From: Escherichia coli
Lineage (GTDB): Bacteria > Pseudomonadota > Gammaproteobacteria > Enterobacterales > Enterobacteriaceae
Length of the DNA: 5,842 nucleotides
Assembly (NCBI RefSeq): GCF_003334405.1
Contig: NZ_QOWM01000032.1
Reading direction: 5' to 3' (one strand)
Part shown: in pieces, positions 4,572-5,842 of the stretch
Layout of the letters: each line of letters begins with the position of its first letter
How positions within the stretch are numbered: the stretch's first letter is position 1
Program-made: the position numbers and the translations under genes
Notes under the pieces: generated by a model
Database searches by the model: none
What the model was told of the DNA's origin: nothing
The model's input: only the letters and a program-made list of their open reading frames with translations

Positions 4572-5147
4572 ATGCAATATGCATTGTTTGATGGATTTGA
4601 ACGAAAGTTTTTGCTGGATGCTCTTGAATTTGGTGTTCTGAAGGACTGGAAAGAAAATCCGGTAAAAGAACTTCCTGATATTGATGAATCTGTTCACCCC
4701 TTCCATGTCTGCTATGGTGGATATTTATTAAATCCTGGTGTTTCAGATTCAGATATTAGCAGAAAAATAAAAGACCAGACAGGATTCTGGCTGGCAGCTA
4801 TTGATGATACCCGCATGGATTGTCATTCAATAGCTTATTATGATATTCACACACTCCCTCTGATTTCGTGTGGACATCAAAAGATAGTTCCTTTTGCAGC
4901 GTTAATAAAAGCTGATGAATGCATCATTTCTAAAATTTCTGCGTATTCTGGTTTTGCCGTAACAGCCTTTTTGAGAATTAAAGACCAGGATATTGCAATT
5001 AATATACTTAACCGTGAAGGAATTTTTGCCTTTAATGGCTGTGAACGCAGGTTCAGACAACCTGTAGGTGAAGATAACTGGAAACAGGCAGTGTCAGAAG
5101 AACGTGCTATTCGCTGTGCAAACAGACTAATTCAGTGTAAAGGATAA
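4572..5147 (+). CDS. Hypothetical protein (~191 aa) translationally coupled to topB; Cys/His-rich, no family recognised
   Basis: The ORF track opens at 4560, but that codon is TTG. The first ATG is at 4572 (MQYALFDGF...) with GAGGG at 4563-4567 as RBS, so 4572 is the preferred start. Stop TAA at 5145-5147, only 4 nt before the topB ATG, and the topB RBS (AAGGA, 5140-5144) lies inside this ORF's 3' end. Contains several Cys/His (HVCYGG, DCHS, SCGH, NGCERR), suggesting possible metal binding. Confidence 0.6.
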   Translation: MQYALFDGFERKFLLDALEFGVLKDWKENPVKELPDIDESVHPFHVCYGGYLLNPGVSDSDISRKIKDQTGFWLAAIDDTRMDCHSIAYYDIHTLPLISCGHQKIVPFAALIKADECIISKISAYSGFAVTAFLRIKDQDIAINILNREGIFAFNGCERRFRQPVGEDNWKQAVSEERAIRCANRLIQCKG

Positions 5148-5151
5148 CAAA

Positions 5152-5842
5152 ATGAGACTTTTTATCGCAGAGAAACCCGCAGTAGCAAATGATATTGTTA
5201 AGGCACTTGGAGGCAATTTTACCCGCCATGATGGCTGGTTTGAAAGTGATAACGCAATTGTGACTAACTGTTTTGGTCATATTATCGAATCACAGCCACC
5301 GGAAAACTATAATCCCGAATACAAAGCCTGGAAGGTTGAAACGCTTCCTTTACGTCTTTATCCCGTGAAGTATCAGCCTGTTGAAAGTGCAGCAAAACAG
5401 GTTAAAACGATTCTCGAACTTATCAGACGTGGAGACGTGACTGAAATTGTTCACGCTGGCGATCCTGATGATGAGGGACAGCTACTTGTTGATGAAGTCC
5501 TGGAATATGCCGGCAACACAAAACCCGTAAAGCGCGTTCTGATTAACGACAACACGCTTCCGGCAGTGAAAAAGGCGCTGGCAAATCTTAAAGATAATCG
5601 TGATTTCAAAGGGCTTTACCTTAAGGCGCTGGCGCGTTCAGTTGCCGATGCCGTCTATGGCTTCTCCATGACGCGTGCTTACACCATTCCTGCAAAAGCC
5701 AGAGGATATCAGGGCGTTCTGTCTGTCGGGCGCGTCCAGACTCCCGTTCTTGGCCTGATTGTGAATCGTACCCGTGCTAACCAGAACCATAAATCCAGTT
5801 TTTACTACACCATGACCGGAGTTTTTCAGCGTGGTGCTGATG
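5152..5842 (+). CDS. topB: DNA topoisomerase III (type IA), plasmid-encoded TopB homologue; 3'-partial, continues beyond the window
   Basis: Manual translation of the open frame from ATG 5152 gives MRLFIAEKPAVANDIVKALGG ... EIVHAGDPDDEGQLLVDEVLEY ... YQGVLSVGRVQTPVLGLIVNR. These match the Toprim N-terminus and conserved blocks of E. coli TopB as recalled (MRLFIAEKPS; HAGDPDREGQLLVDEVLDY; VLSVGRVQTPVLGLVV). No stop codon before the window end; absent from the ORF track because it is open-ended. Confidence 0.92.
   Translation, partial: MRLFIAEKPAVANDIVKALGGNFTRHDGWFESDNAIVTNCFGHIIESQPPENYNPEYKAWKVETLPLRLYPVKYQPVESAAKQVKTILELIRRGDVTEIVHAGDPDDEGQLLVDEVLEYAGNTKPVKRVLINDNTLPAVKKALANLKDNRDFKGLYLKALARSVADAVYGFSMTRAYTIPAKARGYQGVLSVGRVQTPVLGLIVNRTRANQNHKSSFYYTMTGVFQRGAD

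Follow-up and report, generated by a model that had tools for sequence, protein, structure and literature searches.

The window analysed here, 5,842 nucleotides (nt) of the Escherichia coli contig NZ_QOWM01000032.1 (assembly GCF_003334405.1), is the transfer-region end of an IncX4 plasmid and carries, immediately ahead of the plasmid topoisomerase III gene topB, an open reading frame (ORF) for a soluble alpha/beta protein of 191 amino acids (aa). This target ORF (4572–5147, + strand; RefSeq WP_001694194.1, 'hypothetical protein') belongs to an unnamed family found almost exclusively on conjugative or mobilizable elements in Proteobacteria and Firmicutes. We put at roughly even the chance that its product is an optional accessory protein of DNA processing or establishment, translationally coupled to TopB in enterobacterial plasmids, and not an obligate dedicated TopB subunit.

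The evidence for coupling lies at the junction of the two genes. The target ORF ends in the stop codon TAA (5145–5147), which is followed on the + strand by a 4-nt spacer, CAAA (5148–5151), and by the topB start codon ATG at 5152. The topB Shine–Dalgarno (SD) sequence, AAAGGA (5139–5144, +), forms the last two codons of the target ORF, Lys190-Gly191, at a distance of 7 nt from the topB ATG. A preliminary description of the window had noted both the 4-nt distance and a topB ribosome-binding site within the 3' end of the ORF, and these are as described. The arrangement of a Cys-Lys-Gly ending, AAA GGA/GGG codons, a stop, 3–4 nt and an ATG was common to six backbones: a typical IncX4 plasmid (locus L002 of those compared with the window), a rep_cluster_991 plasmid (L003), the IncI2 plasmid pBA76-MCR-1 (L009), an IncX6 plasmid (L014), Pantoea pDSJ05 (L018) and an Arsenophonus plasmid (L019). 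It was retained in plasmids where identity had fallen to 64 % for the ORF and 46 % for TopB, and the C-terminal 'CKG' tail, whose codons supply the topB SD, was found only in members immediately followed by topB. From this geometry, kept across diverged plasmids, we infer that topB translation is coupled to that of the target ORF, which supports the co-translation proposed earlier. The other intergenic gaps in the window measure 8, −17, 5, −4 and 15 nt, and the topB of IncX3 follows an unrelated AAA ATPase gene after 3 nt. Given this tight packing throughout the operon and the IncX3 case, spacing alone does not single out the target ORF.

The target ORF is a real gene under purifying selection. 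Orthologues at 56–96 % identity preserve its length and frame, and the ratio of nonsynonymous to synonymous substitution rates (dN/dS) was 0.09–0.15 in pairwise comparisons of six orthologues over the whole length, with dS up to saturation. A length of 195 aa had been given for the product, from a mechanical start at TTG 4560; the RefSeq start at ATG 4572 gives 191 aa and is preferred because all orthologues open with MQYAL, because the DNA upstream of the ATG varies among backbones and because the ORF has its own SD, GAGGG (4562–4566), 5 nt ahead of that codon. The product is a cytoplasmic protein with an isoelectric point (pI) of about 5.7. An AlphaFold2 model built from 25 sequences reached a predicted local distance difference test (pLDDT) score of 90.5 and a predicted template modelling (pTM) score of 0.89, and the predicted fold is mixed alpha/beta with about ten strands, six helices and no disordered segment. 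No neighbour of this model was found among solved structures.

The topB SD embedded in the 3' end of the ORF would also be expected of a mere leader cistron, whose translation only delivers ribosomes to topB and whose product is functionless. Selection over the whole length and the confident fold prediction run counter to such a reading, and the family is conserved at 25–40 % identity where no topB follows. Purifying selection, combined with conservation in the absence of a following topB, effectively refutes it, and we leave it a negligible probability.

Comparison of backbones indicates that the target ORF and topB move between them as one cassette. Between IncX4 and IncI2 plasmids (L001 12145–14730 against L009 6971–9561) the ORF protein was 95.8 %, TopB 85 % and the DNA block as a whole 87 % identical, with homology extending from 26–28 nt upstream of the ORF ATG to a point inside topB. 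Homology of the window with L002, L003 and L009 resumes at 4544–4546 in all three, which places the 5' edge of the cassette, including the ORF SD, at 4546–4571 (+ strand). The block shows recombination between the epidemic IncX4 and IncI2 backbones that carry mcr-1. A second exchange is seen between IncX6 (L014 4735–8724) and IncX3 (L015 2735–6328), which have in common a 92 %-identical gene for a 420-aa AAA ATPase, with the next gene 3 nt on. After this gene IncX6 has the ORF and topB (TopB 63 % identical to that of the window), and IncX3 has topB alone, of another lineage at 43–45 % identity. The flanks of the pair vary, with DUF6012, PcfJ, AAA ATPase or hypothetical genes upstream and hha, ssb or parM downstream of topB. 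The block limits in IncX4/IncI2 and the IncX6/IncX3 exchange bear out the co-inheritance of the ORF with topB. A thermonuclease-gene remnant is also common to IncX4 and IncI2 (L001 10944–11420 and L009 4570–5047).

The product had been regarded as an orphan, a description that does not survive the counts of 59 close homologues, 261 clusters and 1203 plasmid records. The 59 homologues, down to 32 % identity, came from a word-indexed search, and many of them are labelled 'DNA topoisomerase III' in their source records. A hidden Markov model (HMM) search of 1.84 billion representatives gave 261 clusters at E≤1e-3, of which 157 also passed E≤1e-10 (clusters at 50 % identity, from Proteobacteria and Firmicutes), nearly all of 175–210 aa. 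By tblastn a homologue was present in 1203 plasmids, 1053 of them typed as conjugative; by genus these included 776 from Escherichia, 186 from Salmonella, 91 from Vibrio, 68 from Klebsiella and 27 from Bacillus. Foldseek against AFDB50 returned 38 significant matches, all named 'uncharacterized protein', from organisms such as Paraburkholderia, Pasteurella, Vibrio, Alcanivorax, Bacillus, Clostridium, Enterococcus and Lactococcus.

Five residues, E19, Y48, G49, R148 and W170, were near-invariant in 163 full-length members. Also strongly conserved were an N-terminal MQYA, D16, P107-FAAL, F133-x-R135 and N144-x-x-N147-R148-x-G150. The family signature can be written MQYA...E19...Y48-G49...PFAAL...FLR...NxLNRxG...W170 over about 185–195 aa. 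The target ORF is a member by this signature; it matched the family profile (alignment A3, hmmsearch) at 1.8e-65 and has the near-invariant residues. It is likely that E19, Y48-G49, R148 and W170 form a functional surface together with the PFAAL and NxLNRxG motifs. The family had no match in Pfam, either for the query even at E≤10 or for any of 130 aligned members, and none in NCBIfam, PHROGs and PADLOC (query and 10–130 family members). Sequence-profile searches of the PDB and tblastn against a phage collection gave no match, and a literature search by the accession WP_001694194.1 found nothing.

Assignments to known classes were considered in turn. The preliminary description had pointed to several Cys/His motifs. 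The protein has seven Cys and five His residues, yet no CxxC or CxxH pair, and none is conserved family-wide: the best conserved is C84, at 58 % of the 163 members, and the C189 column is a gap in 70 % of members. Membership of the zinc fingers or zinc ribbons was rejected on these grounds, and the Cys and His residues are incidental. Kinship with DUF6012 (PF19475) was rejected with a BLASTP E value of 0.29 and no Pfam match at E≤10. The DUF6012 protein resembles the target in its 195 aa and its place in the same operon, where it recurs with the ORF and topB in varying orders, but it is not homologous, and the DUF6012 gene is missing from the window; the 'DUF6012' label in the list of BLAST matches belongs to that neighbouring gene. 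The target is likewise no type IA topoisomerase, as it lacks Toprim and Topoisom_bac domains and the real TopB begins at 5152 in another reading frame. The name 'DNA topoisomerase III' on family members (for example CP073616.1, NZ_CP115729.1 and UniProt A0A223LLU4) appears to be spill-over from the adjoining topB.

In three structure searches the best resemblance, a non-significant one, was to the catalytic domain of TruB/Cbf5/Pus10. One could imagine an enzyme that modifies nucleic acids through a reduced pseudouridine-synthase-like core in which D16/E19, Y48 and R148 are the residues used. However, TM-scores were about 0.36 with none significant, aligning the family profile with E. coli TruB by hhalign gave a probability of 0.2 %, the protein of about 185 aa is much smaller than known synthase cores, and the strictly conserved acid is Glu19 and not Asp. 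Membership of the pseudouridine synthase superfamily was rejected for want of significant fold or profile similarity, and we regard an enzyme of this kind as very improbable.

The topoisomerase itself is far more widespread than the target ORF, with a TopB homologue in at least 5000 plasmids. TopBs 56–61 % identical to that of the window were found without the ORF on pRC960-1 and on a Serratia plasmid, both of which have syntenic T4CP-Cag12-TrbM-...-topB-hns backbones (T4CP, type IV coupling protein) with unrelated small genes upstream of topB. The small ORFs upstream of unpaired topB were considered as remnants of the family, and this was ruled out. The ORF-paired TopB of Pantoea is only 46 % identical to that of the window. 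Comparison of paired and unpaired TopBs revealed no separating signature of residues or indels (one column, a score exceeded by about 18 of all 84 6/3 partitions).

These distributions bear on the proposal of the preliminary description that the product is a dedicated partner of TopB, be it a loader, regulator or inhibitor. Such a protein, which could also be a specificity subunit, would bind plasmid topoisomerase III much as RMI1 serves Top3 and, where its gene does not adjoin topB, would work with a topoisomerase from another part of the element or from the host. Conservation of the junction with its SD within codons, the mobility of the cassette and pairing with TopBs as divergent as that of Pantoea are what such a partnership would lead one to expect, and the Vibrio pVA1-type plasmids, Bacillus pCh23_67 and L029 carry a topoisomerase as well as a family member. 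It is opposed by the related TopBs that lack the ORF in syntenic backbones and in IncX3, by the lack of TopB residues or indels specific to the paired enzymes, and by the distant family members that lack an adjoining topB, as set out below. No ORF–TopB fusion protein was present among the 150 best family matches.

Modelling of the two proteins as one chain added a further point. An AlphaFold2 prediction of ORF-(GGGGS)8-TopB gave a pTM of 0.60 and no confident docking, from a shallow set of seven paired rows plus unpaired rows and judged without the predicted aligned error (PAE); by our own estimate a pTM of about 0.58 would be expected of undocked partners and one of about 0.76 of docked ones. 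The homologue search for TopB gave only sequences at least 85 % identical, which contributed little depth to the paired alignment. Both parts of the chain were folded (mean pLDDT 82.5), and confidence for the ORF part was slightly below that of the ORF modelled alone and so not improved. As a model result, the run is a weak negative for docking. Of the dedicated-partner proposal, then, the conserved coupling and the cassette stand, and the related TopBs without the ORF, the distant members without an adjoining topB and the low pTM do not fit; we consider it unlikely.

Genetic data are available for the IncX4 plasmid pHNSHP23. Saturation with Tn5 identified 18 genes required for transfer, namely ten pilX genes, taxA, taxB, taxC, tsxA, cds4, cds9, cds10 (pixR) and cds16, with neither topB nor the target ORF among them (PMC8725589). 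Insertions were tolerated everywhere but in pir, tsxB and mcr-1, and trbM is the last gene of the PixR-activated pilX operon (PMC8725589). The Tn5 data imply that neither topB nor the target ORF is needed for laboratory transfer or maintenance. The possibility that cds4 or cds16 corresponds to the ORF or to topB was rejected, as their primers map to other genes (L001 17782–18051 and 23189–23731). A deletion study of IncX3 (PMC11880322) was uninformative because IncX3 lacks the ORF.

To place the family in its wider context, neighbourhoods were surveyed in a sample of about 20 lineages, which is not a census and comes with no background rate for a topoisomerase near a random plasmid gene. In enterobacterial plasmids the ORF adjoins topB about 1000 times (in 1024 records a query spanning the junction is matched over at least 80 % of its length), and adjacency was seen in the six backbones. 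Distant members have no adjoining topB, a finding that the preliminary description had named as counting against its proposal. No topoisomerase was found within 6–10 kb in six distant loci (L004, L005, L008, L010, L013 and L023), and none is annotated in the 56 of 96 kb of pMBL96 that were examined. A topoisomerase lay about 1–8 kb from the family member in L020, L007, L012, L022 and L029. Gene order varies even within the enterobacterial plasmids: a Salmonella plasmid has DUF6012 and then PilI between the ORF and topB, with a separation of 1026 nt, on another contig topB is 4.3 kb upstream of the family member, and a third, with a 52 %-identical member, has no topoisomerase within 6 kb on either side.

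In Vibrio pVA1-type plasmids the homologue follows traF and a lytic transglycosylase gene and is 7.3–8.9 kb upstream, on the same strand, of H-NS, coupling protein, MobC and topoisomerase genes; about 88 Vibrio plasmids have that topoisomerase and 91 have the ORF. In a Bacillus cytotoxicus plasmid a type IA topoisomerase is 31 kb from the family member. In the 501-kb metagenomic contig L029 (6838–12836) a 38 %-identical member is part of a same-strand series: first a UvrD-type helicase gene and a RuvB-like AAA+ gene, then the member itself, and after it the genes for a 100-aa protein and for an SMC/AAA_23 ATPase. Genes for a type IA topoisomerase and for a lytic transglycosylase, in divergent orientation, are 5 kb from it. 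These cases are suggestive of a looser link between the family and type IA topoisomerases in several distant lineages. Over 21 loci the recurrent neighbours were genes of DNA processing and transfer: TopB (nine), TrbM (seven), and the coupling protein, thermonuclease, H-NS and Hha (six each); PcfJ and lytic transglycosylase also recurred. The neighbours of one distant member were a flotillin-like protein and a lytic transglycosylase. A hypothetical protein of 235–278 aa was observed near the family member in Vibrio plasmids (L012 11194–12030 and L022 20858–21694) and in Pantoea pDSJ05 (L018 2368–3075), where it is directly upstream, and may be a second conserved neighbour.

The restriction of the family to mobile elements would also suit an independent establishment or anti-defence factor, for example one neutralising a host nuclease or defence system, that is in the topB operon through packing only. 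Distant members are found beside ArdC-N and in a same-strand array of ankyrin proteins, an orphan N6-methyltransferase and LPD29, and others have PAPS-reductase-like and ImpB genes nearby or occupy a prophage-like region. The ORF is, like many anti-defence genes, dispensable for E. coli-to-E. coli laboratory transfer (PMC8725589). Such a role would leave the conserved topB junction unexplained, and the pI is unlike that of a DNA mimic. In the IncI2 and Vibrio layouts the ORF is beyond the 3' end of the relaxase gene and outside the leading region, so that by the standard polarity of conjugation it would probably enter the recipient late. Membership of the known antirestriction and anti-defence families ArdA, ArdB/KlcA and ArdC was rejected: these are likewise small and confined to mobile elements, and the target family sometimes adjoins ArdC-N, but there was no match by PADLOC, Pfam, sequence or fold. 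We judge an independent factor of this kind to be doubtful.

The favoured reading is that of an optional accessory protein. In the enterobacterial subclade (IncX4, IncX5/6, IncI2, Pantoea and Arsenophonus plasmids) the target ORF heads a two-gene cassette in which topB is the second cistron. Ribosomes ending translation of the ORF would be handed to topB, and TopB synthesis would be tied to ORF translation, as the sequence of the junction implies. The protein would most likely be an optional auxiliary that helps to process the DNA of the transferred plasmid or to establish it there, a role favoured by the DNA-processing and transfer genes that recur beside the family. It may act in the same pathway as the type IA topoisomerase of the element and its neighbours (the nuclease, PcfJ, helicase/ATPases and H-NS/Hha). 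The role is taken as optional because related TopBs occur without the ORF and because the Tn5 data list neither gene.

Several points weigh against this optional-accessory reading. The coupling is read from geometry only, the presence of the ORF on pHNSHP23 is deduced from 33.3-kb IncX4 mcr-1 plasmids of the same type, and the survey of neighbourhoods is a sample that lacks a base rate for nearby topoisomerase genes. The neighbourhoods of distant members are also heterogeneous, with ArdC-N, the ankyrin/N6-methyltransferase/LPD29 array and the prophage-like region among them, which makes an establishment or anti-defence role unrelated to topoisomerase equally compatible.

Among characterized systems, the closest in position are the accessory genes of mating-pair formation type T (MPF-T) plasmids downstream of the coupling protein, which encode the Cag12 lipoprotein, TrbM/KikA, thermonuclease, PcfJ, TopB and Hha/H-NS. 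The target ORF resembles them in location, strand, tight packing and dispensability for laboratory transfer (PMC8725589), and differs in that they belong to named families whereas its own family has no name in Pfam, NCBIfam, PHROGs or PADLOC.

A different comparison is offered by topoisomerase partners. Type IA topoisomerase III enzymes have accessory proteins in RMI1 for Top3 of eukaryotes and in SSB and RecQ for Topo III of E. coli. The target is similarly small, is linked genetically to an enzyme of the Topo III type and could modulate its decatenation or loading, but it has no OB-fold similarity in sequence or fold and is absent beside many closely related TopBs. A broader possibility is that the family is an unrecognised class of accessory factor, with a new fold, for the type IA topoisomerases of mobile elements, which would target or regulate Topo III in conjugative DNA processing. 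Such a factor would be translationally coupled to topB on enterobacterial resistance plasmids (mcr-1 IncX4/IncI2), and in other elements it would work in trans on a topoisomerase encoded nearby. We hold this only tentatively, as an improbable outcome.

The plasmid type was read from comparison with plasmid sequences. The 1443 bases around the target ORF were 100 % identical to the E. coli plasmid NZ_CP070012.1 (IncX4, MOBP, MPF-T) and 95–99 % identical to 825 other plasmids. The gene order of NZ_CP070012.1 is virB4–virB11, taxB, a Cag12-family lipoprotein gene, TrbM/KikA, two hypotheticals, thermonuclease, a 134-aa hypothetical, the target ORF, type IA topoisomerase, hha and an H-NS homologue. 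The window spans taxB (7–1824) through the first 230 codons of topB (5152–5842, + strand). The topB part matched the 'type IA DNA topoisomerase' of NZ_CP070012.1 at 100 % and continues beyond the end of the window; in the full plasmid the complete product is 717 aa, and its homologues have Toprim, Topoisom_bac and Toprim_Crpt domains.

A gap of 316 nt precedes the target ORF at 4256–4571 (compare L002 5009–6026 and L003 3888–4747). The 106-aa gene and the DUF6012 gene found ahead of the ORF in most IncX4 plasmids are missing from this plasmid and, by blastn of the window against L002 and L003, are replaced by the segment 4322–4545, to which no strand is assigned. This segment resembles the DNA upstream of DUF6012 in the rep_cluster_991 plasmid, as though DUF6012 had been precisely excised. 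A scan for promoters and terminators around the target ORF, including 4322–4545, gave nothing above chance, and no Rfam RNA family was found in the window. A hydrophobic, unannotated ORF of 70 aa (beginning MNDWLCSLHDLITNPVFMLSFSVFWVSTGTLLIRTVF; 4316–4528, + strand) is present in the replaced segment and could be either a small membrane protein or a chance ORF.

Two genes further upstream are also of note. The 134-aa hypothetical (3851–4255, + strand) has a zinc-ribbon-like CxCxxC...CxxC motif, and a few distant members of the target family (P0190, P0193 and P0155) have N-terminal extensions with CxxC...CxxC motifs; these extensions are a possible hint of domain fusion that would tie the 134-aa gene to the target family. 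The thermonuclease (SNase) gene (3320–3835, + strand) has a signal-peptide-like N-terminus and overlaps the preceding ORF by 4 nt, and it recurs in six related loci beside the same accessory genes.

As it stands, the target ORF is a conserved hypothetical gene of the ordinary kind, and one whose coupling to the adjacent gene is documented unusually well. The analysis delimits an undescribed, confidently folded family of more than 260 sequence clusters on conjugative elements and identifies a widespread misannotation, that of a 191-aa protein as 'DNA topoisomerase III'. The gene is carried by the IncX4 and IncI2 backbones that spread mcr-1 and by IncX5/6 KPC plasmids, and is present in well over 1000 sequenced clinical and veterinary plasmids. 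If its product does modulate TopB, it would offer a handle on the role of plasmid topoisomerase III and would be a bacterial counterpart of the eukaryotic Top3 partners.

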